A stretch of DNA of 64,000 bases, taken from IMG/VR virus record IMGVR_UViG_3300032322_001781; one strand, given 5' to 3'. The notes beneath the pieces are model-generated. The model was not told where the DNA came from. It saw only the letters and a list, made by a program, of their open reading frames with translations, and ran no database searches. The translations under genes and the position numbers were made by a program. This document shows positions 38,241-63,595 of the stretch, one piece after another (within the stretch, counting starts at the first letter, position 1; every line of letters starts with the position of its first letter). The DNA is from a virus (taxonomy: Duplodnaviria; Heunggongvirae; Uroviricota; Caudoviricetes).

Positions 38241-38342
38241 ATGAGAAACATTAATATACATATAAATTCGATTAGCATGTGGAGACGTAATAGTAATCCA
38301 TTTGAGTCGGCTATGTCTGTAAGTTTCTTTGATGACATCTAA
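38241..38342 (+). CDS. Attenuator leader peptide L1, MRNINIHINSISMWRRNSNPFESAMSVSFFDDI
   Basis: Codons 2-19 encode only R, N, I, H, S, M, W; antiterminator segment TTTGAGTCGG at 38301-38310. Confidence 0.85.
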   Translation: MRNINIHINSISMWRRNSNPFESAMSVSFFDDI

Positions 38343-38365
38343 AATCAAAATAAACAATAAAGAAG

Positions 38366-38401
38366 AACCCGATTCAGAATAAAATCTAAATCGGGTTTTT
38401 T
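38366..38401 (+). terminator. Attenuator terminator T1
   Basis: AACCCGATTCAG/CTAAATCGGGTT stem plus T-run. Confidence 0.85.
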
Positions 38402-38412
38402 CATTTTAAAAA

Positions 38413-38583
38413 ATGGCTGAACAAAGACTCAAAAAACTTGGAATCGTAAAAGCGACTAAATTAACCAAGAATTTTGATGAGCTTTATGAGGTTTACAAAA
38501 AGAAAGCTGAAAAAGCTGGATATATTGGTGAACTTAAGTTCATCAACGAACATGGTAGAGTGTTTATCTACGTAGTTCTTTGA
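38413..38583 (+). CDS. Small hypothetical protein (56 aa), first gene after T1
   Basis: MAEQRLKKLG...; not in the ORF track. Confidence 0.5.
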   Translation: MAEQRLKKLGIVKATKLTKNFDELYEVYKKKAEKAGYIGELKFINEHGRVFIYVVL

Positions 38584-38599
38584 CATGGTGGTTAAATAC

Positions 38600-38681
38600 A
38601 CAGTGGCATTCATTGGCGAGATAAGCAGTCTCCAAAACTGTGAGCATTACGCTCTTGTGAGTTCAACTCTCACTCACTGTG
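38600..38681 (+). tRNA. tRNA-Trp(CCA), long variable arm
   Basis: Cloverleaf, ctCCAaa loop, G73. Confidence 0.85.
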
Positions 38682-38695
38682 CAAATTATTTTAAT

Positions 38696-38786
38696 GGAAG
38701 CTCCCATGTGGCGTGGTACGTGGTCTTGAAAACCATGAGGTCGGTAACCAATCCGATGTGGCCGAGTTCGACTCTCCCAGTTTCCG
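38696..38786 (+). tRNA. tRNA-Ser(TGA)
   Basis: ctTGAaa loop, long variable arm, G73. Confidence 0.85.
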
Positions 38787-38802
38787 CTTTTAAACTTTAT
38801 AT

Positions 38803-38876
38803 GGGTCAGTTAGCTCAATTGGCAGAGCAATAGATTGTGATTCTATGGGTTATGGGTTCGAGTCCCATACTGGCCC
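38803..38876 (+). tRNA. tRNA-His(GTG)
   Basis: G-1, C73, ttGTGat loop. Confidence 0.9.
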
Positions 38877-38885
38877 CTTAAATAT

Positions 38886-38961
38886 GGTGTTTGAAGCTTT
38901 AATGGTTAAGCGTTGGTCTGTGAATCCAAAGAAGACGGCTCGGTACCGTCCTTACACCCCA
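38886..38961 (+). tRNA. tRNA-His(GTG)
   Basis: ctGTGaa loop, encoded CCA, atypical CTCGGTA T-loop. Confidence 0.8.
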
Positions 38962-39131
38962 CTTTTTTACCGCCTTTAAACGATGGTTTGAACTCCATAG
39001 AGATGGATGCTAGTGAATATGATAATAAACTAGGGCGGTTGAGAGTTAGAATTTATTATAAAATAAAAAAAATACACATGAAAAAAGAATTTGATATGCT
39101 TTAGGACTGCTAAACAACAGTCATTTAAGCA

Positions 39132-39317
39132 ATGAGTAACGAAAAATCAAAAACAACAAATCGTTCTGTATATAATAAACTATATCAAAACGAATTATCT
39201 AAAAAATTTGGATTATGTCCAATATGTGGCCCACATTCTGGTTGTAATAGTCGATTTGGAAAAAAAGGACCATATAGAAATTGGAAAAATTATAGAAAAA
39301 CAAGGTGGAAACAATAG
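39132..39317 (+). CDS. Small basic protein with CPICGPHSGC
   Basis: 61 aa ORF within the tRNA cluster. Confidence 0.55.
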   Translation: MSNEKSKTTNRSVYNKLYQNELSKKFGLCPICGPHSGCNSRFGKKGPYRNWKNYRKTRWKQ

Positions 39318-39333
39318 GGTCTCCACCATTAAA

Positions 39334-39418
39334 CGTGAGGTGGTCTAGCGGTTTGGGGCACCAGTCTGATACACTGGAGAGGAAACTCTATAGGTGGGTT
39401 CGACTCCCACCCTCACGA
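39334..39418 (+). tRNA. tRNA-Ile(GAT), long variable arm
   Basis: ctGATac loop, CCAGT/ACTGG stem. Confidence 0.85.
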
Positions 39419-39427
39419 CTTTAAATT

Positions 39428-39502
39428 CTTGAGGTAATAGTCAATGGTGAGACTGGGAAGCTTATATCTTCGCACGTGTGGGTTCGAGTCCCACCTTCAA
39501 GA
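39428..39502 (+). tRNA. tRNA-Ile(TAT)
   Basis: ctTATat loop, CTTGAGG/CTTCAAG acceptor. Confidence 0.8.
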
Positions 39503-39524
39503 CTTGGAACTTTTTGTAAAATAT

Positions 39525-39597
39525 GGACTGTAAGCTGACAAGGTGTAGCGGTGGTTTGTTAAACCAAGGGTGGTTGGTTCGATTCCAACACAGTCCG
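39525..39597 (+). tRNA. tRNA-Asn(GTT)
   Basis: ttGTTaa loop, G73. Confidence 0.88.
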
Positions 39598-39661
39598 CAA
39601 CATTAATTTTTATTGTTAATAATTGGTTTTTTGTGTTAGAACCACATAAATAATTAAAAAT

Positions 39662-39767
39662 GGACTGGTAGCTCAGAGGCAGAGCAAACGGCTAGGTGTG
39701 ATAATTAGTTTCACACAAAAGAGTGTTAACCGTTAGGCCGAGATTTCAAAATTCTCTCAGTCCTCCA
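39662..39767 (+). tRNA. tRNA-Asn(GTT) with a 31-nt insertion in the anticodon loop
   Basis: AACGG-CT-[39694..39724]-GTT-AA-CCGTT; encoded CCA. Confidence 0.7.
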
Positions 39768-39775
39768 AAATAAAT

Positions 39776-39845
39776 TGCATGTGTTATTGGAAAACAACCA
39801 GCTCTCATAAGGCAGGTCAAGTGGGTTCGACCCCCATCCATGCGA
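39776..39845 (+). tRNA. tRNA-Met(CAT) (or lysidine-type Ile)
   Basis: ctCATaa loop; imperfect stems. Confidence 0.7.
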
Positions 39846-39850
39846 CAAAT

Positions 39851-39930
39851 GCAGACGTAACCGAGCTAAGCTACGAACTTAGTAACCGTAAATGGAGTTG
39901 TAAATGGGGGTTCGAGTCCCTCCGTCTGTA
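39851..39930 (+). tRNA. tRNA-Arg(ACG), D-arm missing, long variable region
   Basis: GCAGACG/CGTCTGT acceptor, CTAAG-ctACGaa-CTTAG arm, only 8 nt between acceptor and anticodon stems. Confidence 0.65.
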
Positions 39931-39937
39931 CTATAAT

Positions 39938-40008
39938 GGTTCCATCGTTCAACGGAAGGACAAGGGTCTTCTAAGCCCTTTATGTAGGTTCGAGTCCTAC
40001 TGGGACTA
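39938..40008 (+). tRNA. tRNA-Arg(TCT)
   Basis: Canonical cloverleaf, ctTCTaa loop. Confidence 0.9.
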
Positions 40009-40012
40009 CTAT

Positions 40013-40101
40013 GGAGAGCTAACTGGACAGGGTTCCAGACTTGTTTGCTAAACAATGGGTGCGTCTAAAAAGCGCATGGTTTTCGATTAACCAGTTCTCC
40101 G
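40013..40101 (+). tRNA. tRNA-Ser(GCT)
   Basis: ttGCTaa loop, long variable arm, G73. Confidence 0.85.
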
Positions 40102-40149
40102 CCCTTGACTTTTTTATTTTGGCTAATATTTATAGAAAATTTTTAGCCA

Positions 40150-40846: not shown

Positions 40847-40848
40847 TT

Positions 40849-41364: not shown

Positions 41365-41365
41365 T

Positions 41366-41929: not shown

Positions 41930-41966
41930 TTTGGTTTTATAAAATTAATCTTGTACCTTTGTCTTT

Positions 41967-43528: not shown

Positions 43529-43564
43529 CTTGCAACTTGTAAAAAATAGTGGTATCTTTGTAAA

Positions 43565-43873: not shown

Positions 43874-43876
43874 TTT

Positions 43877-44137: not shown

Positions 44138-44194
44138 GGTTTTTATTTTGAAAATTAAATATTTTTATTTACCTTTGTAGTATAAATAAAAATT

Positions 44195-45319: not shown

Positions 45320-45365
45320 AGTTTATCTTTTTTAACATCTCTATTAAACTAATAAATAAAGCAGT

Positions 45366-47259: not shown

Positions 47260-47269
47260 AAATATAAAA

Positions 47270-48993: not shown

Positions 48994-48994
48994 A

Positions 48995-53334: not shown

Positions 53335-53388
53335 ATTTGGTAATATAAAATTCTTTTATTACCTTTGCAATCACAAAATAAAAAAGAC

Positions 53389-53784
53389 ATGTTTTTTAGA
53401 CGCAAACATTTAGTAGAATTCGGATATAAAGTCATGGGGCTTGATTTCGGTAGCAATAACACATACAATAACTATGTTAAATATTTTCCAGAGCATAACT
53501 CAATGGTTGTGTTCTCAAGTATTCATAACAATAGGGTTTTGGTTTATCGACTAACCAAACAACAATATGATGATTTCCAAGAAGGAAAGTTTGCGTTGTC
53601 ACATGATGGTAGAGGTTGGGGTTCAACTCCAACTGGTCATCCGATTAAAAATCATGGTATAACAGCCATATTTGCTGGTGGTGAAATAAGCAGACGAAAG
53701 TATCTAAAAGAAATGCTTGATGTAGCTGAAGAAATAGCACAAGGCAAAGAAATAGAATTTGAATTCGTAATTAAAAGAAAATAA
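53389..53784 (+). CDS. Hypothetical protein
   Basis: Likely start MFFRR. Confidence 0.5.
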   Translation: MFFRRKHLVEFGYKVMGLDFGSNNTYNNYVKYFPEHNSMVVFSSIHNNRVLVYRLTKQQYDDFQEGKFALSHDGRGWGSTPTGHPIKNHGITAIFAGGEISRRKYLKEMLDVAEEIAQGKEIEFEFVIKRK

Positions 53785-53785
53785 A

Positions 53786-54793
53786 ATGGGCGGGAAAGCG
53801 TTGAAAGGTGAAAATACAATTACTCGTAGATACGAGAGAGCAGAATTTGACACCATAAGTGTTGAACTTATGAACATGCTAAAGCCAGACTTTAAACGTG
53901 TTGCAATGCCTCTCTTCTATAATAACAAAGAATCATTCGGTGATGCTGATATTCTCCTTTCAATGGAAGGTTTTAATGGCAACATACGTGATTACATCAC
54001 TGATAAGTTCAATCCCAACGAGATATTCCATAATGGAAACTGTTGGTCATTTGATTACAAAGAACTTCAAGTTGACCTTATCACGGTATCAGCTGAAGAC
54101 TTTGACACCAATGAAATGTATTTGTCATACAATGACCTTGGCAATTATATAGGAAAAATAGCCCATGGTTTTGGTTTAAAATATGGGCAAAATTGTTTAA
54201 CCTATGACCATTATTTTAAAGGTGTAAAAATAGGTAGAGTTTTTATTTCACAAGACTTTCCTAGAGTTTTTGAATTTTTAGGGTTGGATTATAATAGATA
54301 TCTTCAGGGATTTGATGAATTAGAGGATATCTTCAAATATATATCTGAATCTAAATATTTTAATTGGGAATTCCTTCAATTAGAAAACAATAATAAAGTT
54401 AATAGAGATAGAGATAAAAAACGAAAATCATATATGTCATTTTTAGAATATATTGAAAATAATTGTAAAGATGATAATCATAGATACCAATACGAAAAAG
54501 ATAAATCTATATATTTTAATAAAATTATTGAATTTTTTCCAGAAAGTAATCTAGAAATGGAAATCAGAAGGATGGAATATGAATATTGTAAATCACTTTA
54601 CATCAAAGCCAAATTCAATGGTGGTGAAGTAATGCGTAGATATGGACTACAAGGCAAGGAGTTGGGTGACGCTATATCTGGGTTTAAAAAAAACATAATG
54701 AGTGTTTTTGGTGAAAAAACGTATGAAGACTACATCATAAACAACGGATTAGAAAAAATATACAGTGATTTTGAAGTTTATTTAAAAAGATAA
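53786..54793 (+). CDS. Pol-beta-like nucleotidyltransferase
   Basis: FGDADIL...QVDLI motif. Confidence 0.65.
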   Translation: MGGKALKGENTITRRYERAEFDTISVELMNMLKPDFKRVAMPLFYNNKESFGDADILLSMEGFNGNIRDYITDKFNPNEIFHNGNCWSFDYKELQVDLITVSAEDFDTNEMYLSYNDLGNYIGKIAHGFGLKYGQNCLTYDHYFKGVKIGRVFISQDFPRVFEFLGLDYNRYLQGFDELEDIFKYISESKYFNWEFLQLENNNKVNRDRDKKRKSYMSFLEYIENNCKDDNHRYQYEKDKSIYFNKIIEFFPESNLEMEIRRMEYEYCKSLYIKAKFNGGEVMRRYGLQGKELGDAISGFKKNIMSVFGEKTYEDYIINNGLEKIYSDFEVYLKR

Positions 54794-54797
54794 AATT

Positions 54798-55301
54798 ATG
54801 AATATAGATGATGCACCAAAAGATTCGATAAGAACAAATTCTGGTTTATACATAAATGTATTTGACACTGACCCAGCTACAATTAAAATAGAAGACATTG
54901 CACATGCTTTGTCTAGGCTTCCTAGATTTGGTGGTCATTTAAATCGTCATTATTCTGTCGCACAACATAGCGTGTTATGTGCTCAAATGGCTAAAACAAA
55001 AAAAGATAAAAAGGCAGCTTTACTACATGATGCCAGCGAATCCTATCTTTTGGATATGCCAACGCCAATCAAAGCCAAAATGAACGAATACAAATCTTAC
55101 GAAAATAAGCTGATGGCAGTTATTTTTAAAAAATATGGATTGGTATGGCCTTTAAACCCAAATATTAAAAAGATTGATAGAAAAATGTTATTGATTGAGT
55201 GGGAAAATCTAGCAGTTAATGATAATAAGTCTTTTGAATGTTGGAAACCTAATAAGGCTAAAAAAGAATTCTTAAAACTATATAAAGAATTGTTTAAATA
55301 G
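54798..55301 (+). CDS. HD-domain phosphohydrolase (YfbR-like)
   Basis: YSVAQHS and LLHDASE motifs. Confidence 0.85.
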   Translation: MNIDDAPKDSIRTNSGLYINVFDTDPATIKIEDIAHALSRLPRFGGHLNRHYSVAQHSVLCAQMAKTKKDKKAALLHDASESYLLDMPTPIKAKMNEYKSYENKLMAVIFKKYGLVWPLNPNIKKIDRKMLLIEWENLAVNDNKSFECWKPNKAKKEFLKLYKELFK

Positions 55302-55325
55302 AACAAGTTCAAAAATGAAATTACA

Positions 55326-55658
55326 TTATTTGTAGAAAGGGTTTTGTTCCAGAAGAAGTTTTACAGTTTTATCAATCCATTTACATCTATCAATAAACCC
55401 TAAAACTTGTTCATCATCTAATGAAAACCATTCATTATTAGCCTCTGTTTTTTTACTAGCAAAGTCTCTATGCAACCATCTTTCTATTTTTTTATAGTTA
55501 TCGGTTTCATAAAAATTTAAAAGACTAATAATATTAGAATTACCAGTTGACAATTGTTTAACTCTTTTTTCAGGGTGATTTTTAGAATGACCTATTTTGT
55601 ATCTTTCATGACCATGTTTATCCACCTCTAATAAAATATATACATAACCCATAAACAA
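55326..55658 (-). CDS. GIY-YIG (T5orf172-like) protein
   Basis: YVYI, YKIG, R..QL.TGN and EWF motifs. Confidence 0.75.
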   Translation of the reverse strand: MFMGYVYILLEVDKHGHERYKIGHSKNHPEKRVKQLSTGNSNIISLLNFYETDNYKKIERWLHRDFASKKTEANNEWFSLDDEQVLGFIDRCKWIDKTVKLLLEQNPFYK

Positions 55659-55688
55659 ATTTAAAGAAAAAGATTACCTTTGTAAAGA

Positions 55689-56432
55689 TTAACTTTCTGA
55701 AATCGCTAAATTTATTAGTTTTATCAGTTGAATCCCTTTAGAACTAATAAAAACATCCTCATGATTATTAAAATTTGCAATAACATTGATGGGACTGTTA
55801 TCAATTCTAATTAATTCATCTTCATGATAAGCTTTTGATAAACGTTTAAAATATTTTGATTTAAAAATAAATTCATTTGGGTTGGTAGTATATTCCAACA
55901 CAAACGCCATTCTCAAATCCTCTTCAATCATTTCTCTTAACAAAATTTTACGTGACTCAGGTGTTTTATAATCATTAAAATCTATATTTGCCGCTACTTC
56001 TGTTAAAATTTCATGATTACCAAAAATTGATGCTGAATCAATATTGGTAGACCAACTTTGAATTTTACTTTTTGCCTTATAAACATAAGGAAAAGGTTTA
56101 TACATATTTATTGGTATTTTTTTATTTATAAAATAACTTGCTGGTAGAGTTAAACCACGATATACTTTAGTTTTTTCTGGTGTTAGAACTTCAGGATATT
56201 GTGCCATACATCCTTTTAATGTTTTAATAGCGTTTATAAAATCTGGTGTTATTTCTTGACCATACATATTATCAGTAAAATCTTCAATGTCTCTTACGTA
56301 TTGGTTTTCCAATCCAGTGTTTTTTTCGACCCCACCCAATTCATCACCAAATAATTCAGAACCAAACTTCCTAACACAAGCCTCTATTTCAGACTCATTT
56401 ATAAGTGTTTTATAAACTTCTAAAATTTTCAT
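55689..56432 (-). CDS. Hypothetical protein with LINE leader (ART-like motifs possible)
   Basis: VYRG and QSWST motifs; minus-strand TATTTATA upstream. Confidence 0.5.
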   Translation of the reverse strand: MKILEVYKTLINESEIEACVRKFGSELFGDELGGVEKNTGLENQYVRDIEDFTDNMYGQEITPDFINAIKTLKGCMAQYPEVLTPEKTKVYRGLTLPASYFINKKIPINMYKPFPYVYKAKSKIQSWSTNIDSASIFGNHEILTEVAANIDFNDYKTPESRKILLREMIEEDLRMAFVLEYTTNPNEFIFKSKYFKRLSKAYHEDELIRIDNSPINVIANFNNHEDVFISSKGIQLIKLINLAISES

Positions 56433-56450
56433 TTGTTTTTTTTATATAAA

Positions 56451-56512
56451 TACTTGACAAATTGAAAAATAATTACTACCTTTGCATAACTTTTAAAAAT
56501 AACTATATATTT
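56451..56512 (+). promoter_or_regulatory. tRNA-operon promoter, copy 2
   Basis: TTGACA at 56454, TACCTTTG at 56477. Confidence 0.8.
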
Positions 56513-56521
56513 AATAGTAAT

Positions 56522-56596
56522 ATGAAAAACTTAAATTTAAACTTAGTCCTTGTGTTATGTTTGCTAGTGGCAGACTGGATGGGCTATGTTTGTTAA
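56522..56596 (+). CDS. Attenuator leader peptide L2, MKNLNLNLVLVLCLLVADWMGYVC
   Basis: 11 of codons 2-16 are L, V or C; antiterminator segment GGATGGGCT at 56577-56585. Confidence 0.85.
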   Translation: MKNLNLNLVLVLCLLVADWMGYVC

Positions 56597-56620
56597 GTAA
56601 GTAATAAACTGAAATAACCG

Positions 56621-56650
56621 AAGCCCATCCGTAAAAAGATGGGCTTTTTG
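56621..56650 (+). terminator. Attenuator terminator T2
   Basis: AAGCCCATC/GATGGGCTT stem plus T-run. Confidence 0.88.
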
Positions 56651-56659
56651 CTTTTATAT

Positions 56660-56746
56660 GCTCATATACCAAAGTGGTTGAATGGGGCGGTCTGCAAAAC
56701 CGCTGGATTGAAAAATCCCACGTAGGTTCGAATCCTACTATGAGCT
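56660..56746 (+). tRNA. tRNA-Cys(GCA), long variable arm
   Basis: ctGCAaa loop, U73. Confidence 0.88.
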
Positions 56747-56764
56747 CACAAACAAATAATAAAA

Positions 56765-57088
56765 ATGAATAAAAACGAAGTAACAAAAGAATTGTATAAA
56801 TCAAAAGCAATGGCTAAGTTTAGTCATTATATTGGTGGTAATTTATATTACATGGTTGAAGTTTTTGGTGAATTGTATCAGTTCCCAATCTCAACAATTG
56901 AGCCCAGACAAATTATGATAGGTGGTATGGATGAAATGGATGGTCCAGCAGATGCTGAATATATTGAAACTATAAAGCTTTCTGAAGATTTAGGTACAAC
57001 TAGGTTTGAAGGTGAAGTTAGAGGTTCAGAATTGAATAGATGGATTGGTAAAGCGATAGATACTAATAATTTTATAAAAATAAATTGA
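56765..57088 (+). CDS. Hypothetical protein
   Basis: 107 aa ORF in the tRNA cluster. Confidence 0.6.
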   Translation: MNKNEVTKELYKSKAMAKFSHYIGGNLYYMVEVFGELYQFPISTIEPRQIMIGGMDEMDGPADAEYIETIKLSEDLGTTRFEGEVRGSELNRWIGKAIDTNNFIKIN

Positions 57089-57089
57089 A

Positions 57090-57311
57090 ATGAAGGAAAT
57101 TAGAAAAGTTGGTATTGAAATAGAGATTGAGGTTCAACCAATAGAAGAATATTTTAAAGAAAATGGGATTGAATCTAATGGTGAGCCATCTAGTAAATTG
57201 GCTTGTTATATTCCATGTATAAATACATCGTTTTCAACAAAACCAGAAAATTTTGAATCTATGGTAAAATCAATATTTTATAGTTTTTTTCAAGAAAAAC
57301 TTAAAAAATGA
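57090..57311 (+). CDS. Hypothetical protein
   Basis: 73 aa ORF. Confidence 0.5.
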   Translation: MKEIRKVGIEIEIEVQPIEEYFKENGIESNGEPSSKLACYIPCINTSFSTKPENFESMVKSIFYSFFQEKLKK

Positions 57312-57316
57312 AATAT

Positions 57317-57388
57317 GGGGGTTGCGTATAATGGTAGTATGCATGGTTTACATCCATGAAGGAAACGGTTCGATTCCGTTAGCCCCTA
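57317..57388 (+). tRNA. tRNA-Val(TAC)
   Basis: CATGG-ttTACat-CCATG arm. Confidence 0.9.
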
Positions 57389-57394
57389 CAACAG

Positions 57395-57465
57395 TGTTCT
57401 AGCATATGATGGTAGTATACTTCTTTGACATGGAAGGTGAAGCAGTTCGATTCTGCTTAGAACAA
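57395..57465 (+). tRNA. tRNA-Val(GAC)
   Basis: CTTCT-ttGACat-GGAAG arm. Confidence 0.85.
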
Positions 57466-57525
57466 CAAAAATAAATTTGGTAATATTAAAAATATATATT
57501 ACCTTTGTTTCGTTCTTTAATATAT

Positions 57526-57611
57526 GGGTGGGTGGCGTAACTGGTAGCCGCACTAGACTTAAAATCTAGGGTCCCGAAAGGGGCGTATGGGTTCGAATCC
57601 CATCCCGCCTA
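57526..57611 (+). tRNA. tRNA-Leu(TAA)
   Basis: Canonical class II tRNA, ctTAAaa loop. Confidence 0.92.
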
Positions 57612-57688
57612 CGCTAATTAAGCTAGTTTATGAACAGCCTATGAGGTGAGATGCTCTCATTATAAGACAGCTCGGAAAGACGAGCAAT

Positions 57689-57794
57689 GGTGAGGTGGTG
57701 AAATTGGTAGACGCAACCTATTAAGGGGTCGGAGGTAATAGCAAAACGTAAGATACGGAATAACTCCATGCAAGTTCAAATCTTGTCCTCACCA
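57689..57794 (+). tRNA. tRNA-Leu-like gene, irregular anticodon loop (TAA or AAG), variable arm of about 40 nt
   Basis: Leu-type D-arm GGTGAAATTGGTAGACGC, intact acceptor and T-arm. Confidence 0.6.
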
Positions 57795-57870
57795 CCTTGT
57801 GCTCAGTAAAGCCTCTTGCGAAAGCAACGTAACTGATGGAAGTATCTCTAATGAGTACGCCTTCCAAAAT

Positions 57871-57968
57871 GGCCAGATGGTGGAATTGGTAGACACAGCG
57901 TAAGTAGGTATTACAGTAAACCGAACTCGCTTCTGTATTTATGTAGGTTCGAGTCCTACTCTGGGCCA
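57871..57968 (+). tRNA. tRNA-Leu-like gene with elongated anticodon arm (CAG at tip?)
   Basis: Leu-type D-arm; AGCG/CGCT stem encloses 27 nt. Confidence 0.55.
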
Positions 57969-58051
57969 CAAAATCTTGCTTTGCAACTGATGAGTGAAAG
58001 ACCTCAAAATTATGCAATGGTAGTTGACTGCTTGGAATAGACAAGCACCAT

Positions 58052-58135
58052 GGGGAAATGATGGAATTGGCAGACATAATCGCCTTAGAAGCGATGGCTG
58101 AAATATGCGTAAGAGTTCGAGTCTCTTTTTCCCTA
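58052..58135 (+). tRNA. tRNA-Leu(TAG)
   Basis: ATCGC-ctTAGaa-GCGAT arm. Confidence 0.9.
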
Positions 58136-58184
58136 CAAATCTTGAGAGTAATTAACTCAAGACTGAACGATTCGAAGCGTTCGA

Positions 58185-58274
58185 TTGGTCATAGTGTAGT
58201 GGGCACACTGGCCCTAGACTCCATATAGAGGGTCGGGGCTGGAGGTTGGTGGTTCGAATCCTACCTTGACTAAC
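58185..58274 (+). tRNA. tRNA-like gene with extended anticodon arm, identity unclear
   Basis: TTGGTCA/TGACTAA acceptor, GCCCT/GGGGC stem enclosing an extra GAC/GTC hairpin, T-loop TTCGAAT. Confidence 0.5.
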
Positions 58275-58278
58275 TAAA

Positions 58279-58363
58279 AAGATGGTTACAGCAAATAACT
58301 TAGGATAAAAATTTGTCTCGAAAACGAATCTAGTGGTTCAAATCCACAAATATACCATCTTGA
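58279..58363 (+). ncRNA. tRNA-mimic RNA of the helix + CAGCAA family
   Basis: AAGATGGT/ACCATCTT helix, TACAGCAA, an anticodon-like arm (ctCGAaa) and T-arm GTGG-TTCAAAT-CCAC. Confidence 0.6.
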
Positions 58364-58367
58364 TTTT

Positions 58368-58449
58368 GGCCCTATGGTGGAACTGGTAGACACGCTTGAC
58401 TCAAAATCAAGTGCCGCAAGGCGTAACGGTTCGAGTCCGTTTATCCCTA
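58368..58449 (+). tRNA. tRNA-Leu(CAA) with mismatched acceptor stem
   Basis: ctCAAaa loop; GGCCCTA vs TATCCCT gives three mismatches. Confidence 0.65.
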
Positions 58450-58454
58450 CAAAT

Positions 58455-58544
58455 GGTTCAGTGGTGCAACTGGTTGAGACACAGCAGATTTAAAATCTGC
58501 TACCCAAGAGGTAAACGTTGTGGGTTCGAATCCCACTTGGACTA
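58455..58544 (+). tRNA. tRNA-Leu(TAA)
   Basis: GCAGA-ttTAAaa-TCTGC arm. Confidence 0.88.
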
Positions 58545-58612
58545 CTTAAGTTCTTTGAAATATTTTTACATGTAGTGTGTACTTTTCACGCGTCTACCTT
58601 ATATTTATAAGT

Positions 58613-59047
58613 ATGAGAACAGATATAATTGAAAGAAAAACAGAAATACTTAATTGGATAAGTGAAAATAAATCTAAAGCTTATATGATTAAAGAATTAG
58701 GTTGTAAACAAGATACACTAAATCAATATTTAAAATTAATGAATATTGATTATAACGGTAATCAAGCTGGTGTTGGTTTACTAAAAAGTAAAGTAGAATT
58801 AGAAGATATAATAACTAACAAAGTTAAGTTCAGTCGTCATCAATTAAAGAAAAGACTATTACATTTAGGTATACTTGAATATAAATGTTGTTGGTGTGAT
58901 AATATTGGTGAATGGAATGGTAAACCGATGTCGTTAGAGTTAGACCACATTAATGGTATCAATGATGATAATCGATTAGAGAATCTTAGAATCCTTTGCC
59001 CAAATTGTCATAGTCAAACACCTACATATAAAAATAAAAATAGATAA
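58613..59047 (+). mobile_element. HNH homing endonuclease
   Basis: CCWC...LELDHING...N...NLRILCPNCH motif; TATTTAT promoter at about 58601. Confidence 0.85.
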
Positions 59048-59048
59048 T

Positions 59049-59135
59049 ACCCTTATAAGCAAACTGGTAAAGCTGGTGGTCTTAGAAGCCATGGCAAACA
59101 TTGATACGTTCTCGGTTCGAGTCCCACTATCCTCA
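59049..59135 (+). pseudogene. Degenerate tRNA-Leu(TAG)
   Basis: GTGGT-ctTAGaa-GCCAT arm, with unpaired acceptor and weak T-stem. Confidence 0.6.
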
Positions 59136-59248
59136 CAAGAAATATTTAAAGCTGATATTGCAATATCATCTTTTTTTATGTATATTTGTGTTATGATAAA
59201 ATTGAAAATTTTATCCATTTTTTATGTATATTTATATGTATATGTGAA

Positions 59249-59455
59249 ATGCTTAAAATAAATAAAATATCAGAATTGATAATTGGTCATGATTATTATT
59301 ATCAAAAAAATAATATCACTGGTATTCTTATTTTTATTAACTTTTCAAATAATTTAGGTTCGTTTAAAATTAAACAATTAAATAGATTAATAGATTTTGA
59401 TATCCTTTGTTTATCAGAAGAATCAATACTAAATCATATTTATAAAAAAGTTTAA
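59249..59455 (+). CDS. Hypothetical protein
   Basis: Likely start MLKINK. Confidence 0.4.
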   Translation: MLKINKISELIIGHDYYYQKNNITGILIFINFSNNLGSFKIKQLNRLIDFDILCLSEESILNHIYKKV

Positions 59456-59516
59456 AATAAATTTGGTAATGTTAAAATTAATACATACCTTTGTCCTATC
59501 AAATTAAAAACAAAAA

Positions 59517-59582
59517 TACTTGACAATTTAAAATTAATTAGTACCTTTGCATAACTTTTAAAAACAACAACATATTTATATT
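59517..59582 (+). promoter_or_regulatory. tRNA-operon promoter, copy 3
   Basis: TTGACA at 59520, TACCTTTG at 59542, then TATTTAT. Confidence 0.8.
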
Positions 59583-59595
59583 AAAAATAAAAACA

Positions 59596-59685
59596 ATGAG
59601 AACTTTTAACAACATATTTGATTTTGCAGCGTTTGCAGCCGAGGAGGATAGACTCTTAGGTAGGTCAGTTATTGTCAAAAGTTAA
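59596..59685 (+). CDS. Attenuator leader peptide L3, MRTFNNIFDFAAFAAEEDRLLGRSVIVKS
   Basis: 12 of codons 2-18 are F, D, A or E; antiterminator segment GGTCAG at 59663-59668. Confidence 0.85.
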   Translation: MRTFNNIFDFAAFAAEEDRLLGRSVIVKS

Positions 59686-59708
59686 CATAAAAAGTTAAAA
59701 CATGATAG

Positions 59709-59738
59709 AAGCCTGACCGTAAAAAGTCAGGCTTTTTT
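59709..59738 (+). terminator. Attenuator terminator T3
   Basis: AAGCCTGAC/GTCAGGCTT stem plus T-run. Confidence 0.88.
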
Positions 59739-59745
59739 CGTTTAT

Positions 59746-59818
59746 GGGGGTATAGCAAAGATGGTCTATGCGGAGGACTGAAAATCCTTAGATGTTGGCT
59801 CGGTACCAACTGCCCTCA
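59746..59818 (+). tRNA. tRNA-Phe(GAA)
   Basis: GAGGA-ctGAAaa-TCCTT arm; CTCGGTA T-loop. Confidence 0.85.
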
Positions 59819-59907
59819 CAGAATAGTTATTTGACGTATTGGCGATTGAAATAGAATTTAAAAAATGTTATTCCATGTCTTTTAATGTTAATATAACGGT
59901 ATGATTT

Positions 59908-59991
59908 GGTCCATAATACAAAGGGGTGAGTGGCTGCTCTTTCAAGGCAGATGTAGAAATACTAGAGAGGGTTCGATTCCCTTGTGGACTA
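59908..59991 (+). tRNA. tRNA-Glu(TTC), long variable arm
   Basis: CTGCT-ctTTCaa-GGCAG arm. Confidence 0.75.
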
Positions 59992-60001
59992 CAATATAAA
60001 T

Positions 60002-60087
60002 GTCGCATTAGCCTAACAGGTTAGGGCACCAGCCTTTCAAGCTGGAAGTCGAAAGACTGTGAGAGGGTTCGAGTCCCTCATGCGATA
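60002..60087 (+). tRNA. tRNA-Glu(TTC), long variable arm
   Basis: CCAGC-ctTTCaa-GCTGG arm; AGTC-GAAA-GACT variable arm. Confidence 0.88.
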
Positions 60088-60150
60088 CCTTGACTTTTTT
60101 TGTACTTTTTCTATAAAGAAAGAAGAACAATTTGGAAAGACGGATAATAT

Positions 60151-60226
60151 GGCTGATAGGTCAAACGGTTAAGATATCTCCTTGTCACGGAGTATGGAGC
60201 GAGTTCAACTCTCGTATCAGCCGCCA
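60151..60226 (+). tRNA. tRNA-Asp(GTC)
   Basis: ttGTCac loop, G73, encoded CCA. Confidence 0.9.
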
Positions 60227-60256
60227 TAATAGACAATCTGGAAAGACAGATAAAAA

Positions 60257-60331
60257 CGAGCATTAGGCCCCTTGGTGGGGAACAAGATTGTCACTCTTGT
60301 AAAATTAACGGGTCGCAACCGTTATGTTCGG
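60257..60331 (+). tRNA. tRNA-Asp(GTC)
   Basis: CAAGA-ttGTCac-TCTTG arm; atypical T-loop. Confidence 0.75.
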
Positions 60332-60333
60332 CA

Positions 60334-60437
60334 AAACTAAATACCCTTATTGGGCAAGCTGGATTGGGTCACTAGCATTCTCGTTCGAGTCGAGCTTTGT
60401 GGGCCAGCTAGGAGAAATGAAGACCTATTTAGTTTTT
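60334..60437 (+). ncRNA. Candidate permuted tRNA-mimic RNA
   Basis: AAAACTAAATA/TATTTAGTTTT closing helix with an internal CTCG-TTCGAGT-CGAG T-arm. Confidence 0.45.
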
Positions 60438-60439
60438 AT

Positions 60440-60513
60440 GGGTCATTGGTGAAGCTGGCTATCACACATGTCTTGCAAACATGAGTCTCGGATTCGAGGT
60501 CCGAATGTATCCA
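60440..60513 (+). tRNA. tRNA-Ala(TGC)
   Basis: CATGT-ctTGCaa-ACATG arm; irregular acceptor and T-loop. Confidence 0.75.
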
Positions 60514-60579
60514 CAATAGAGTTATGGTGTACACAGAAAAACTCTATTCGTCAATCCAATCGGAAGGTTGGTGCGATGA

Positions 60580-60651
60580 AGTCATGAAGTATTTATGGTA
60601 AGTATTCCACACGGCCTGTGGGGGTTATTGGTTCGAATCCAGTCATGACTG
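60580..60651 (+). tRNA. tRNA-Ala(GGC)-like gene
   Basis: AGTCATG/CATGACT acceptor, CCAC-acGGCct-GTGG arm, TTCGAAT T-loop. Confidence 0.6.
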
Positions 60652-60914
60652 CAAAAACCCTAAAATTTTTTATTTTATACTTGCACGATATTAAAATGTT
60701 TAGTAGCTTTGCATTATTAAACAAACGTTCTGATTTTTTTTAGTGATTAAAGGGCTGTCCATGGCCCACGTAATAAAATACGTATGAACTACAGTTCATG
60801 TAAACATATGACAAATTAGCCAATTGTTAGTAGCAATATGTTAAAAAACAGAGACCAATGGATTCTAATTTGAATGGTTAGATAGGTAGTTAGAGCCGAA
60901 AAATCTAATAAATG

Positions 60915-60986
60915 GTGACGTAGCTCAGTTGGTAGAGCAAAGGACTGAAAATCCTTGTGTCGGTGGTTCGATTCCACCCGTCACCA
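60915..60986 (+). tRNA. tRNA-Phe(GAA)
   Basis: Canonical cloverleaf. Confidence 0.95.
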
Positions 60987-61113
60987 CGATGTGTCAACAC
61001 GTGTGGTGAATGTGTTAAAATGATGGATAACATACCCGAATAATCAATGAGACCCCATCAAGTAGGAAAGACTGCGACTAAACCTACTTAGCTTTTGTAA
61101 GGTAAAAGCAAAT

Positions 61114-61235
61114 AGGGAGGTGGCCAAATTGGTAAAGGCGGCAGTAAGCAAAAAGATTAATCTGTTAAGATTAAGTTCAGCAACCAAAACGCAATGGAAA
61201 ACTGCTATTTGTGGGTTCGAATCCTACCCTCCCTA
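61114..61235 (+). tRNA. tRNA-like gene with a 55-nt anticodon loop containing the helix + TTCAGCAA motif
   Basis: AGGGAGG/CCTCCCT acceptor; GCAGT/ACTGC stem encloses TTAATCT/AGATTAA-GTTCAGCAA. Confidence 0.65.
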
Positions 61236-61432
61236 CAATTATAAAAAGGTATAAAATATAAGGCTAAACTTCATTATTTTTCATTAAAAAAAATGTTAAT
61301 AAAAAACTGATAATCAATAAAATAGGTTCGTATTTTATTAATAAAATTGCTTGACTTTTAATAAAAATATATTATATTTGTTTATAAAAAAAATTATAAT
61401 AACAATAATAAAAAACAAATAAAATAAAACAA

Positions 61433-62068
61433 ATGGCTGGAAAAACAACCACAACAAAAAAAGCAAGTGCGTCAACTGAAATCGTATTAGGTCAAGCCGC
61501 ACAACAAATTTCTAAAGCGGTAAGCGAATTGAATGCTGCTACAGAAACTGTAAACAAATTAGCAACACAAGCTGAAGACTTGACTCTTCAAGTTGCAAAC
61601 AAAGAAGCTCAGATTTCTGAATTAGATGTTCAGTACGCTGAAAAAGCTCGTCAAGCTGAAGTTGATTTCAATTTGAACGTTAAAGCTAACTCTCAACGTG
61701 TAGTAAACGAAATTTTGAGAGAAGGTGGAATGGAATCTATCAGCTCTGCTGAATTGAAAGCATTGCGTCAAGAATTGGCTGATACCAAAGCTGGTGCTGA
61801 AGCTGAAACCAAGAAGCAAGTTGCTATTGTGTCTTCAACTCTTAAGGCTCAATTCGACAATGATTTACGTTTTATCCAATCTGAAAACAAAGCTATCGCT
61901 GCTGAGAATGCTTCTAAAATCGGTGTATTAGCTGAAAAGAACAAGTTCCTTGAAGAACAAGTTACCAAGTTGTACACTCAATTGGATTCTGAACGTCAAG
62001 CTGGTATAGAAAGGGCTAAAGCTGGTTCTATCGGAAATATCACGGTTGGTGATACTTCTCGTAAGTAA
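61433..62068 (+). CDS. Coiled-coil protein
   Basis: 211 aa, A/E/K/Q-rich, well-adapted codon usage. Confidence 0.7.
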   Translation: MAGKTTTTKKASASTEIVLGQAAQQISKAVSELNAATETVNKLATQAEDLTLQVANKEAQISELDVQYAEKARQAEVDFNLNVKANSQRVVNEILREGGMESISSAELKALRQELADTKAGAEAETKKQVAIVSSTLKAQFDNDLRFIQSENKAIAAENASKIGVLAEKNKFLEEQVTKLYTQLDSERQAGIERAKAGSIGNITVGDTSRK

Positions 62069-62083
62069 TCCAAAAAACAATAA

Positions 62084-62290
62084 GCTATGTGAGGAATTGC
62101 ATAGCTCATTGCAAGGTAAAAGATTACTTCATAAGAACAAACTCGTGTAGCGTTAGGGTGGCTCCCTTTCCCACATTTGGGATATGACCAAAAAGAGCTG
62201 TGGCTGACCACGGGCATCCTTTATACAGGGGGCGAAATAACGCAAACGGTTTCTAGAGCCTAGGTAAATTCCCACGAGTCCCTGTTCCTT
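62084..62290 (+). ncRNA. Candidate multi-stem ncRNA
   Basis: GC-rich intergenic island; ACTCGTG/CACGAGT and GCGTTA/TAACGC long-range helices plus several hairpins. Confidence 0.45.
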
Positions 62291-62590
62291 TTTATCTCCA
62301 CAAATATTTTTTATAGAAAAATTTGTAAATCCCAAATATTATTCGTACCTTTGTATTCATTAATAATAAAACTTTCTAAAGCTATGGGGTTAGCTTGGAC
62401 TGAATACGGAGATAAACATAGAGATGTTTTTCACGATATTAAATAATTATTGTTAAAATCCTAAAAAATACTAGGTTAACTTGACAGTTTATAAAAATTA
62501 AGTATATTTGTGTGGTTCTATATATTTATAAAAAATAAAATCCTTCAAAGTTATTGGTTGGGTTAAAAATTAAATCAAATTAAATGGATA

Positions 62591-63013
62591 GTGGTGAGTG
62601 TAGTAAACAGGAAGACGCTGGGGACAGTATGTCTAGCGATAGCAACCTTCCTAAACCCTTTTGGGTTCGATATTTTGGTTTACAAACTAATGTCGTTAAC
62701 AAACGATTATTGGAGCACAATGCTTATATTATATGTATTTTCGGCCCTGTTCTTTGGAGTATCTTTTATTTCATTTAAATTAGGTGAAAAGATAATAGCA
62801 AATGCAACGATGACTGTTGGTTTATTTTTGAATCCGTTAGGTTATGATTTTGTTGTTTTTGGTATAAATAAATTAACAAACGATTATTGGATTACAATGA
62901 GTATTATGTATATAATGGCTACGTTATTTTTTATTGGTTTTATGGTTTTTTATAAAATAAATCCGATAAAAATAATTAATATAAAAACTAAAAAATATGG
63001 ACAAAAATTTTAA
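62591..63013 (+). CDS. Four-TM membrane protein with internal duplication
   Basis: Two copies of FLNP(F/L)G(F/Y)D...LTNDYW.TM. Confidence 0.65.
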   Translation: MVSVVNRKTLGTVCLAIATFLNPFGFDILVYKLMSLTNDYWSTMLILYVFSALFFGVSFISFKLGEKIIANATMTVGLFLNPLGYDFVVFGINKLTNDYWITMSIMYIMATLFFIGFMVFYKINPIKIINIKTKKYGQKF

Positions 63014-63407
63014 CGACTTATTTGACGAATTTTTTTTTAAAAAAAATTTATCCGATAGCGATTTCTACAAAAAAATAAACATCAATATTAAACAATTGTT
63101 TGACCTTCTTAAAAATGTTAAAACAAATGAAATTGATGGAAAAACAGATATGTCATTGGGCGAACCAGATAGTGTTGAATCATATTCAGATGGTTTTTTC
63201 TTTTTTGAAAAAAAAGTATGGCACACCCCAAATGGTGATATTATAAAAATAACAGCTTCAGATAATACAGATAATTTACATGAGCCAGAAAAAACGTTAC
63301 AAGAACAATTGGATGAAGCTATAAATAATGAAAACTACGAGAAAGCCGCACAGATTCGTGACCTTATGAATCCACCAAAGAAAAAAAAGTCCACCAAAAA
63401 AAAATAA
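62997..63407 (+). CDS. UVR (UvrB/UvrC-motif) domain protein
   Basis: LDEAINNENYEKAAQIRD motif. Confidence 0.7.
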   Translation: MDKNFNDLFDEFFFKKNLSDSDFYKKININIKQLFDLLKNVKTNEIDGKTDMSLGEPDSVESYSDGFFFFEKKVWHTPNGDIIKITASDNTDNLHEPEKTLQEQLDEAINNENYEKAAQIRDLMNPPKKKKSTKKK

Positions 63408-63424
63408 AAAATATTTTGCAAAAA

Positions 63425-63490
63425 ACTTGACAAATTAAAAATTAATTAGTACCTTTGCATAACTTTTAGAAACAACAACATATTTATATA
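63425..63490 (+). promoter_or_regulatory. tRNA-operon promoter, copy 4
   Basis: TTGACA at 63427, TACCTTTG at 63450, then TATTTAT. Confidence 0.8.
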
Positions 63491-63502
63491 ACAATAAAAG
63501 CA

Positions 63503-63595
63503 ATGAAAACAACAACGACATATACAGGGAAACAGTATCCGCAAGGCAAACAATTGCCTAACGGACTAGTAATGTCGTTATATAATCTAAGCTAA
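63503..63595 (+). CDS. Attenuator leader peptide L4, MKTTTTYTGKQYPQGKQLPNGLVMSLYNLS
   Basis: Codons 2-17 encode only K, T, Y, G, Q, P; antiterminator segment GGACTAG at 63563-63569. Confidence 0.85.
   Translation: MKTTTTYTGKQYPQGKQLPNGLVMSLYNLS

Follow-up and report, generated by a model that had tools for sequence, protein, structure and literature searches.

In this giant freshwater phage, sequence analysis indicates that each of four tRNA gene blocks is preceded by a short reading frame and a predicted, switchable transcription stop, and the four arrangements probably act as attenuators of transcription, of the ribosome-mediated, leader-peptide kind, with one block of phage tRNAs under the control of each. 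Since the frames are written in the amino acids of the tRNAs that follow them and cover all 20, a block is probably made only when the codons of its leader are decoded slowly. The anatomy of the units, the match between leader codons and tRNAs, its conservation, the alternative RNA pairings and the success of a prediction about DNA beyond the 64,000-nucleotide stretch that was analysed (the window) were all observed.

The four units lie on the plus strand, as do all features located below in the window, and share one order, in which a promoter is followed by an ORF of 24-33 codons, an intrinsic terminator and the tRNA cluster. The unit 1 promoter (38165-38195) has a TTGACA element, a 17 nt spacer and a Bacteroidota-type -7 box (TACCTTTG), and near-identical copies are located in units 2 (56454-56484), 3 (59520-59549) and 4 (63427-63457). 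Their core, TACCTTTGCATAACTTTTA, occurs as four exact copies, at 38188, 56477, 59542 and 63450, with a chance expectation of 0.1. In every unit the leader ORF starts 38-46 nt downstream of the -7 box, and a GC-rich hairpin of 9-13 pairs with a T-run (T5-T6) is found 22-25 nt past the leader stop. Promoter-like sites are also present within cluster 2, 5' of the Leu tRNAs (57476-57507), and within cluster 3, 5' of the second Phe tRNA (60681-60711); these may bypass the attenuators and give rise to unattenuated expression.

The tRNA genes were identified with ARAGORN and Rfam and by reading the sequence by eye. The leader of unit 1, MRNINIHINSISMWRRNSNPFESAMSVSFFDDI (33 codons, 38241-38342), uses only R, N, I, H, S, M and W in codons 2-19 (38244-38297), and cluster 1 (38597-40103) contains tRNAs for Trp, Ser(UGA), His (two copies), Ile(GAU), Ile(UAU), Asn, Met, Arg(ACG), Arg(UCU) and Ser(GCU), as well as an Asn-like gene with an insertion and a 61-aa ORF. 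The second leader, MKNLNLNLVLVLCLLVADWMGYVC (24 codons, 56522-56596), has the core LVLVLCLLV at codons 8-16 (56543-56569) and precedes cluster 2 (56660-58545), which holds Cys, two small ORFs, Val(UAC), Val(GAC), Leu(UAA), Leu(UAG), Leu(CAA) and again Leu(UAA), along with three degenerate tRNA-like genes. In the third, MRTFNNIFDFAAFAAEEDRLLGRSVIVKS (29 codons, 59596-59685), the core FDFAAFAAEED occupies codons 8-18 (59617-59649), and cluster 3 (59746-61236) encodes Phe, two Glu, two Asp, Ala(UGC), Ala(GGC) and Phe tRNAs, together with a tRNA-like gene that carries a 48-nt insertion. Codons 2-17 (63506-63553) of the fourth leader, MKTTTTYTGKQYPQGKQLPNGLVMSLYNLS (30 codons, 63503-63595), are limited to K, T, Y, G, Q and P, and the first part of cluster 4 (63715-64000) comprises Pro(UGG), a Pro(UGG) with a long extra arm, and Gln(UUG).

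Counting confident tRNAs, and with K, Y, T and G located past the window end, the cluster sets are W, S, H, I, N, M, R; C, V, L; F, E, D, A; and P, Q, Y, T, G, K. They are the same as the leader sets and jointly comprise all 20 amino acids, which bears out a sequence-only reading made earlier, in which the four leaders were proposed to split the 20 amino acids 7+3+4+6 without overlap. The partition may nonetheless prove less clean, since several tRNA-like genes, left out of these sets, have aberrant anticodon arms. An initiator-like tRNA-Met (34101-34173), having GGG:CCC at the foot of the anticodon stem and a 1:72 mismatch, lies outside the four putatively attenuated clusters; as such a tRNA is untestable by elongation, its position outside the system was counted in favour of the attenuator reading, which as a whole we regard as probable.

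Sensor codons were counted from codon 2 through the codon preceding the antiterminator segment, giving 75 codons over the four leaders. Fifty-eight of these match their own cluster, with 38 matches for the best wrong assignment of leaders to clusters. The remaining codons (17/75) are out of set; the K and N codons in L2 and the R, T, N and I codons in L3, previously raised as exceptions, are indeed present and are located at positions 2-7, which vary freely in relatives. It might be argued that the ORFs are low-complexity noise, unrelated to the tRNAs and copied along with duplicated promoter cassettes, as the promoters and 5' UTRs of the four units are clearly paralogous and short ORFs are abundant in AT-rich DNA. 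This explanation was already disfavoured and we give it almost no credence: in a permutation test of the kind suggested with the sequence-only reading, none of 1,000,000 random ways of dividing the 20 amino acids 7/3/4/6 gave the observed 58 matches, the maximum being 50.

Coincidence is also at odds with what lies past position 64000, where Thr, Tyr, Gly and Lys tRNA genes had been predicted on sequence that had not been seen. A 306-kb ENA scaffold, L001, showed zero mismatches to positions 52997-64000 of the window (11,004 shared bases), and a tRNA search of its downstream DNA, as had been proposed, revealed Tyr(GUA), Thr(UGU), Gly(UCC), Gly(GCC), Lys(CUU) and Lys(UUU) no more than 1.15 kb from the window end. 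These continue cluster 4 (L001 11066-12151) in the order Tyr, Thr, Gly, Gly, a Lys mini-leader, Lys(CUU) and Lys(UUU), and belong to the L4 unit; no TACCTTTG promoter box separates the L4 promoter from the next gene. The content first given for cluster 4 within the window, Pro, Ser(GGA) and Gln, was correct for Pro and Gln. The anticodon loop of the tRNA at 63796-63890 is CTTGGAA, so that its anticodon is UGG (Pro) and not GGA (Ser), and the supposed exception that L4 left unmatched is the second Pro(UGG), the one with the long extra arm. As to the proposal of four separately sensed groups, four units are found, but a nested mini-leader, MKKMSFKFKRKSKR, with its own hairpin precedes the Lys tRNAs in block 4, and sensing is thus better described as four units plus one.

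Leader ORFs are present in relatives of the phage. The L1 residue set is kept in homologues at L009, L010, L014, L018, L020, L028 and L029, and the cores LVLVLCLL, FDFA..FAAE.D and TTYTGKQYPQGK are likewise maintained. Among relatives down to 46% neighbouring-protein identity, the sensor part showed 42 alternative residues, of which 25 were in-set against an expected 24% (p about 1e-6), while in the tail part of the same leaders the count was 9 of 37. That substitutions stay in-set again speaks against a chance by-product. Residues also swap places between relatives (HINSISMW vs HMISISNW), and what is kept is the amino-acid set rather than the nucleotide triplets or their positions. This bears on another possibility, namely that the units are small non-coding RNAs or T-box-like tRNA-binding leaders in which the ORFs are untranslated and the codons serve as specifier triplets that pair with anticodons. 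sRNA genes, too, have a promoter followed by a terminator within about 200 nt, and T-box leaders likewise sense tRNA and work via antitermination. We nevertheless find this very unlikely, since the conserved feature is the set and not the triplets, the matched triplets share a single frame that runs from an ATG to a stop codon, the matched codons coincide with the productive stall window described below, and neither the T-box nor any other Rfam family was found at threshold on any of the leaders; T-box (RF00230) gave zero hits on the four leaders, whether the cutoff was the gathering threshold or E<=10.

The attenuator reading further draws on antiterminators that are mutually exclusive with the terminators in all four units and appear in the minimum free energy (MFE) structures of transcripts ending before region 4. 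In unit 1, region 2 (TTTGAGTCGG, 38301-38310), the 5' half of the antiterminator, pairs with region 3 (CCGATTCAGA, 38369-38378), which is common to the antiterminator and to the intrinsic terminator (38366-38401, a 13-pair hairpin and T6); the duplex has -12.9 kcal/mol and compensatory pairs (GC4/AU3/GU1 and GC7/CG1). The corresponding duplex of unit 2 (-18.9 kcal/mol) is formed by CTGGATGGGCT (56575-56585) and AGCCCATCCG (56622-56631), the latter within the terminator at 56620-56649. Region 2 of unit 3 is GGTCAG (59663-59668) and region 3 CTGACC (59713-59718; terminator 59707-59738), with GGTCAAG:CTTGGCC pairing in relatives, and in unit 4 GGACTAG (63563-63569) faces CTAGTCC (63624-63630; terminator 63620-63651), a pairing found in 9/9 relatives with one pair being AU5/GU3/GC1. 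Shuffled sequences reached the antiterminators of L1 to L4 in 5, 0, 265 and 130 of 2000 cases, respectively; the shuffles were beaten jointly, and the short L3 and L4 antiterminators (6-7 bp) are individually not significant. Covariation of the antiterminator with the terminator arm is seen in relatives as compensatory changes, partly read by eye.

When a ribosome footprint was masked, an A site on codons 2-16 (L1), 2-14 (L2), 2-18 (L3) or 2-16 (L4) permitted region 2:3 pairing and later codons abolished it, so that the permissive windows match the runs of in-set codons. Region 1:2 hairpins, candidate anti-antiterminators that would favour termination under fast or absent translation, appear in the full-length MFE structures and were 94% and 81% paired in relatives, compared with 22-40% for slid controls, with almost no covariation. 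Without a ribosome, thermodynamics favours pairing of region 2 with 3 over pairing of 1 with 2 in L1-L3, and termination in the unstalled state therefore needs a kinetic argument.

We infer that the leaders are translated, that ribosomes stall on them and that read-through responds to the stall. The strong promoter would yield a transcript whose first ~100 nt code for the short peptide, the early codons being those read by the tRNAs encoded downstream. With fast decoding the ribosome would move on across region 2, or a 1:2 hairpin would re-form behind it; region 3 would then pair with region 4, forming the terminator and leaving the tRNA block untranscribed. If any of the tested tRNAs were scarce or uncharged, the ribosome would stall at the sensor codons, and region 2, free during the stall, would pair with the emerging region 3 and allow RNA polymerase to read into the tRNA genes. 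If true, this would constitute a negative feedback on decoding capacity, with four blocks spanning the 20 amino acids and a nested Lys-specific unit in block 4.

The same hardware might instead respond to amino-acid starvation, through tRNA charging and not tRNA abundance, the leaders reporting nutritional state as in biosynthetic operons and tying tRNA output to nutrition. The architecture is of the classical attenuator type, and stalling is blind to whether a tRNA is absent or uncharged, as is established for trp/his-type attenuators (e.g. PMC1183508). Extra tRNA, however, cannot relieve amino-acid starvation, so that feedback driven by it would be futile. The match also goes beyond amino acids to isoacceptors: the leaders contain, for at least 20 distinct anticodons of their own clusters, a codon that is cognate or read by wobble, including AGA and CGT for Arg(UCU) and Arg(ACG), ATT and ATA for Ile(GAU) and Ile(UAU), GCA/GCG/GCC for Ala(UGC) and Ala(GGC), and GGG and GGC for Gly(UCC) and Gly(GCC). 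In addition, the genome encodes a CCA-adding enzyme, Rnl1 and a tRNA ligase CPD domain, functions of tRNA repair and maturation. We therefore hold a starvation signal to be unlikely and favour the sensing of tRNA supply.

A literature search for leader peptides or attenuators of phage tRNA arrays found no published description. In LR745206.1, a published phage of 634 kb, there are at least seven leader-plus-terminator units, each matching the tRNAs that follow under a different partition; these predicted units are an independent replicate of the design, and matching leaders in so distant a phage are again difficult to reconcile with coincidence. The LR745206.1 record is without any annotation.

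Multivalent leaders are known from enterobacteria, where thrL senses Thr and Ile and ilvL/ivbL sense Leu, Val and Ile, in addition to trpL, hisL, pheL and leuL. Like these, the phage units have a putatively translated short ORF with regulatory codons for several amino acids, in which the sensor region is predicted to pair with region 2, and an intrinsic terminator whose formation excludes that of an antiterminator. Unlike them, they would control tRNA genes and not biosynthetic enzymes, with up to seven amino acids per leader, Bacteroidota-type promoters and four phage-borne units that partition the 20 amino acids. The Rfam families Thr_leader, Phe_leader, Trp_leader, His_leader and Bacteroid-trp gave best scores of 13-22.5 bits on the four leaders against gathering thresholds of 41-55, all below threshold (Thr_leader 21.9 vs 55, Phe_leader 18.9 vs 55, Trp_leader 13 vs 41). 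The pheM leader of E. coli pheST attenuates an aminoacyl-tRNA synthetase operon and senses one amino acid; the likeness would lie in leader-peptide attenuation of a component of the translation apparatus with cognate codons as the sensor, whereas the phage units would control the tRNAs themselves. With T-box RNAs they would share transcription antitermination that reports tRNA status and translation-related targets, but a T-box binds uncharged tRNA directly via one specifier codon and needs no ORF, and the phage units have ORFs. The Bacteroidete tryptophan peptide leader RNA (RF01692), a leader-peptide attenuator from the same host phylum, bears a weak, sub-threshold resemblance to L3 (22.5 bits vs a threshold of 49) but is a different family, which senses Trp and controls trp genes. 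Finally, as in T4, T5, KVP40 and huge phages such as LR745206.1, the tRNA genes are clustered beside genes for tRNA repair and maturation; unlike the accounts of large-phage tRNA arrays located in the literature search, the present one includes putative leader peptides and attenuators.

Short leader open reading frames (ORFs), four in number (L1 to L4), precede the four tRNA clusters (C1 to C4) of the phage, and we favour the explanation that each is a ribosome-mediated leader-peptide attenuator, in which stalling on sensor codons would permit read-through into the tRNA block. The 19-mer TACCTTTGCATAACTTTTA has exactly four exact copies in the window (38188, 56477, 59542 and 63450; 0.1 expected), every one within a TTGACA-N17-TACCTTTG promoter, and about 40 nt downstream of them the leader ORFs L1 (38241-38342), L2 (56522-56596), L3 (59596-59685) and L4 (63503-63595) open with ATG. 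At 22-25 nt past each leader stop codon lies a GC-rich hairpin with a T-run, after which the tRNA cluster begins. The terminator scanner missed the L4 terminator, which has a 9-nt loop, and gave the L1 hairpin on the minus strand only; both were recovered by RNAfold. A sigma-70 promoter scanner was uninformative, since the promoters of the window are of the Bacteroidota type. Promoter-like sites were also found within cluster 2 (57476-57507) and cluster 3 (60681-60711), and may provide basal, unattenuated expression.

Several further elements were seen around the leader promoters. The element CATATTTA, located about 25 nt past the -7 box, is kept in all units. A second promoter family, AAATAAATTTGGTAAT...TACCTTTGT, occurs at 38092-38123 and 59462-59493, where each copy precedes a leader promoter by about 70 nt, as well as at 57476-57507, the last of these in cluster 2, ahead of the Leu tRNAs. 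A small hairpin, GGGG(A/C)AACCC, is present in the leader 5' UTR of relatives (L009 6700-6716; L006 and L019) and absent from the window phage. The leader-promoter 20-mer was also found upstream of an ATP-cone (Nrd-like) ORF in three loci (L015 367, L016 1637, L030 9176), on contigs of 11-180 kb that possibly come from a host or a different phage.

The window has a GC content of about 31% and carries nearly all of its genes on the plus strand, among them genes for a CCA-adding enzyme, a T4 Rnl1-type RNA ligase, a DNA ligase, a PARP-like protein, one tmRNA and more than 30 tRNAs. The Bacteroidota-type promoter TTG ... TAnnTTTG matched 54 times on the plus strand vs 13 times on the minus strand. 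A 306-kb lake metagenome scaffold from ENA (L001) has 0 mismatches to the window across 11,004 common bases and runs past its end, and the relatives of the window come from freshwater metagenomes. We therefore take this to be a jumbo phage whose hosts are probably Bacteroidota of fresh water. A phage search with the CCA-adding enzyme found no cultured relative, the best matches being uncultured phages of 32-39% identity; scans of IMG/VR by exact sequence and promoter pattern gave no match, and megablast against phage records gave matches of tRNA size only. The nearest record in the genome set compared (G001) is fragmentary, spanning 42.7 kb and containing a single tRNA. At 32869-34100 the tmRNA is followed by some 900 nt poor in ORFs with a promoter-like site of its own (33730-33760), located upstream of the initiator-like tRNA described below, and this stretch may hold another structured RNA.

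The tRNAs were assigned by ARAGORN at two thresholds, by Rfam and by reading of the anticodon loop. Among the genes assigned with confidence, cluster 1 contains Trp, Ser(UGA), two His, Ile(GAU), Ile(UAU), Asn, Met, Arg(ACG), Arg(UCU) and Ser(GCU); cluster 2 Cys, Val(UAC), Val(GAC) and Leu(UAA, UAG, CAA, UAA); and cluster 3 two each of Phe, Glu and Asp with Ala(UGC) and Ala(GGC). Cluster 4 has two Pro(UGG) and Gln(UUG) within the window and continues past base 64000, in L001, with Tyr(GUA), Thr(UGU), Gly(UCC), Gly(GCC), Lys(CUU) and Lys(UUU); no TACCTTTG promoter box was found from the L4 promoter to the next gene. From the leader codons, the sequence-only reading had proposed that the 20 amino acids were split without overlap (7+3+4+6) and had staked this on Thr, Tyr, Gly and Lys tRNA genes lying just past base 64000. 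All of them are present in L001, and the clusters {W,S,H,I,N,M,R}, {C,V,L}, {F,E,D,A} and {P,Q,Y,T,G,K} equal the leader sets. The same reading had placed in cluster 4 a Ser(GGA) unmatched by L4, an assignment that was mistaken; the gene at 63796-63890 has the loop CTTGGAA and a class-II-like extra arm and is therefore Pro(UGG), which removes the caveat. An initiator-like tRNA-Met (34101-34173) lies in a separate unit, apart from the four with leaders, a sensible placement given that initiators are not open to testing by elongation.

We measured the match over a sensor window running from codon 2 through the codon preceding the antiterminator segment. In it, 58 of the 75 codons belonged to the leader's own cluster set (18/19, 11/16, 12/21 and 17/19 for L1 to L4), vs 38 for the best mispaired assignment of leaders to clusters. 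It might be proposed that such a match is coincidence; in the permutation test that had been suggested with the partition, none of 10^6 random 7/3/4/6 partitions reached 58, the maximum being 50, and this reading was rejected. The match extends to isoacceptors, for instance with AGA and CGT for Arg(UCU) and Arg(ACG), ATT and ATA for Ile(GAU) and Ile(UAU), TCG, AGC and AGT for Ser(UGA) and Ser(GCU), GTC and GTG for Val(GAC) and Val(UAC), TTA, CTA and TTG for Leu(UAA), Leu(UAG) and Leu(CAA), GCA/GCG/GCC for Ala(UGC) and Ala(GGC), and GGG and GGC for Gly(UCC) and Gly(GCC).

Relatives were found through neighbouring proteins and one metagenome scan with the promoter core, giving 8, 6, 9 and 9 distinct sequences for the L1 to L4 families. 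The leader cores LVLVLCLL, FDFA..FAAE.D and TTYTGKQYPQGK were kept, and the residues of L1 varied within their set, with variants including MRNNNIHMNSINIWRRSSS, MRNINIHMNSINWRRSSH and MRTINIHMISISNWRRNSHSN. In the sensor parts of the four families 25 of 42 alternative residues were in-set, where single-base changes alone would give 24% (binomial p ~1e-6); the C-terminal tails had 9 of 37 in-set, equal to expectation. The out-of-set codons that had been noted as caveats, K and N in L2 and R, T, N and I in L3, do lie early (positions 2-7) and vary freely in relatives.

The minimum free energy fold of the full-length transcript has a long hairpin between region 1 (the sensor codons) and region 2 (a later ORF segment), together with the 3:4 terminator, and in transcripts cut ahead of region 4, region 2 takes region 3 as its partner. 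Their cores, in that order, are TTTGAGTCGG and CCGATTCAGA in L1, CTGGATGGGCT and AGCCCATCCG in L2, GGTCAG and CTGACC in L3, and GGACTAG and CTAGTCC in L4; the terminator stems differ among all four paralogous units, each having its own matching upstream segment. Among 2000 dinucleotide shuffles of the upstream part, 5, 0, 265 and 130 reached the region 2:3 duplex for L1 to L4. In relatives 93% of the L1 antiterminator helix was paired and compensatory changes were seen at two pairs (GC4/AU3/GU1 and GC7/CG1), the L4 helix was 100% paired with changes at one pair (AU5/GU3/GC1), and those of L2 and L3 stay paired through G-U or joint changes, e.g. GGTCAAG with CTTGGCC; pairs in alignment A2, where MAFFT misaligns the terminator, were read by eye. 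Region 1:2 hairpins were 94% and 81% paired in relatives vs 22-40% in slid controls, with scant covariation. When a 30-nt ribosome footprint was masked at each A-site codon, A sites at codons 2-16 (L1), 2-14 (L2), 2-18 (L3) and 2-16 (L4) left region 2 free for region 3, and those at later codons blocked the pairing; the matched-codon runs, which end at codons 19, 16, 18 and 17, coincide with these productive windows. A weakness of the model is that without any ribosome L1 to L3 thermodynamically prefer region 2:3 pairing, and therefore termination under fast translation must rest on kinetics. The translating ribosome would then cover region 2, or the 1:2 hairpin would re-form first, giving termination.

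Within cluster 4 a nested Lys-rich mini-leader, MKKMSFKFKRKSKR, with a hairpin lies directly ahead of the Lys tRNAs (L001 11898-11971; 894-967 bases past the window end). The hairpin (L001 11943-11971) has 12 pairs, abuts the stop codon and was scored as terminator-like by the scanner, and the unit is kept with stem covariation in four related loci (L002, L006, L007 and L023). Its 3' arm also shows complementarity, in several relatives, to the first of the Lys tRNAs at the 5' end.

The same design recurs in LR745206.1, the closest phage record by CCA-adding enzyme (39% identity), a published but unannotated 634-kb sequence of an uncultured phage. Its 61 tRNA matches are spread over several clusters, and it has at least seven units of leader plus terminator, in which the leader amino acids are those of the tRNAs that follow: HK.F.K.HKWF precedes His, Phe, Trp and Lys; S.SSSRSSS.S precedes Arg and Ser; YE.YYEE precedes Glu and Tyr; I.IA.IG.GAGAI precedes Ile, Gly and Ala; MTTMNLNMTMNLTLNVVNITL.NIR precedes Asn, Arg, Leu, Val, Ile, Thr and Met; P.P.P.D.DP precedes Asp and Pro; and QQ.QQQQ..Q, in a unit nested like the Lys unit of the window phage, precedes Gln. 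Since these units match under a partition that differs from that of the window, leader composition tracks cluster content across lineages, and this design of leader plus tRNA block is probably widespread in large Bacteroidota-type phages.

The clusters hold a number of unusual genes. Long class-II-like variable arms were seen on the class-I tRNAs Trp, Ile, Cys, Glu, Pro, Gln and Lys, of 85-95 nt (window 38597-38684, 39334-39419, 56660-56747, 59908-60089, 63796-63890, 63903-63990; L001 12063-12151), and their orthologues are of normal length in close relatives (Cys 72 nt in L002, Trp 72 nt in L009, Gln 73 nt in L004). The tRNA-Arg(ACG) at 39851-39931 has a clear anticodon arm (CTAAG-CTACGAA-CTTAG), a nearly absent D arm and a long extra arm, and its canonical orthologue lies at L010 8563-8637. 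Other tRNA-like genes are sound in the acceptor, D and T arms and have 20-50 extra nt in the anticodon arm (window 39662-39767, 57689-57796, 57875-57965, 58186-58274, 61114-61236; L001 11683-11790), which could be introns, decoys or signs of decayed genes; of those at 57689-57796, 57875-57965 and 58186-58274, Infernal scored the first alone as a tRNA, with an aberrant anticodon arm. ORFs of homing-endonuclease type (HNH, NUMOD3 and GIY-YIG-like) lie in or beside the clusters (window 58577-59047; L002 3835-4578; L013 1652-2374), their presence varying among near-identical phages, and Pfam gave no match to small ORFs within the clusters beyond one HNH endonuclease. A conserved 56-aa ORF without a Pfam match lies between the L1 terminator and tRNA-Trp (38413-38583; also L009 6904-7074 and L010 6944-7114), where it would share the regulation of tRNA block 1.

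A search for RNA runs listed none for a 7.6-kb stretch and, for the L1 region, gave low-share contig sets only. Aligned to the window, these were scattered pieces of relatives and other organisms, with pieces in two metatranscriptomes that cover the 56-aa ORF and some tRNAs; such pieces reveal neither where transcripts start or end nor how abundant they are, and may stem from carried-over DNA. It is from sequence that we infer that the leaders would be translated and that read-through would respond to tRNA supply.

Phage tRNA genes are usually viewed as constitutive supplements to codon usage, or as spare parts against tRNA-targeting defence. Our results suggest that decoding speed sets tRNA output by feedback, block by block, and this appears to cover all 20 amino acids. 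The leader gives a readable "label" of its tRNA operon, one that correctly foretold unseen genes, and such leaders could be tested and reused as compact natural sensors that report tRNA availability from several inputs. A more tentative proposal, which we hold to be possible rather than likely, is that the units form a homeostat of decoding capacity that doubles as counter-defence, each tRNA block being induced when its tRNAs are depleted. Depletion might arise because the tRNA pool of the host does not match the AT-rich codons of the phage, or because host immunity cleaves tRNAs, for example with anticodon nucleases. On this view the nested Lys-only unit and its Gln-only counterpart in LR745206.1 would be alarms dedicated to tRNAs that nucleases often target, acting alongside the phage Rnl1 ligase, CCA-adding enzyme and tmRNA.

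A small-RNA reading of the units was also considered and rejected. The Rfam search matched no leader family and no T-box, and a T-box reading was likewise rejected. A full-text literature search found no paper on leader-peptide control of tRNA genes, and to our knowledge this would be, if true, the first case of leader peptides governing tRNA genes. The architecture of the units is that of classical leader-peptide attenuation, above all of the multivalent thrL and ilvL types, and together with the Rfam and literature results this places them as a variant of it: classical attenuation is well known, and tRNA genes as its target are what would be new.
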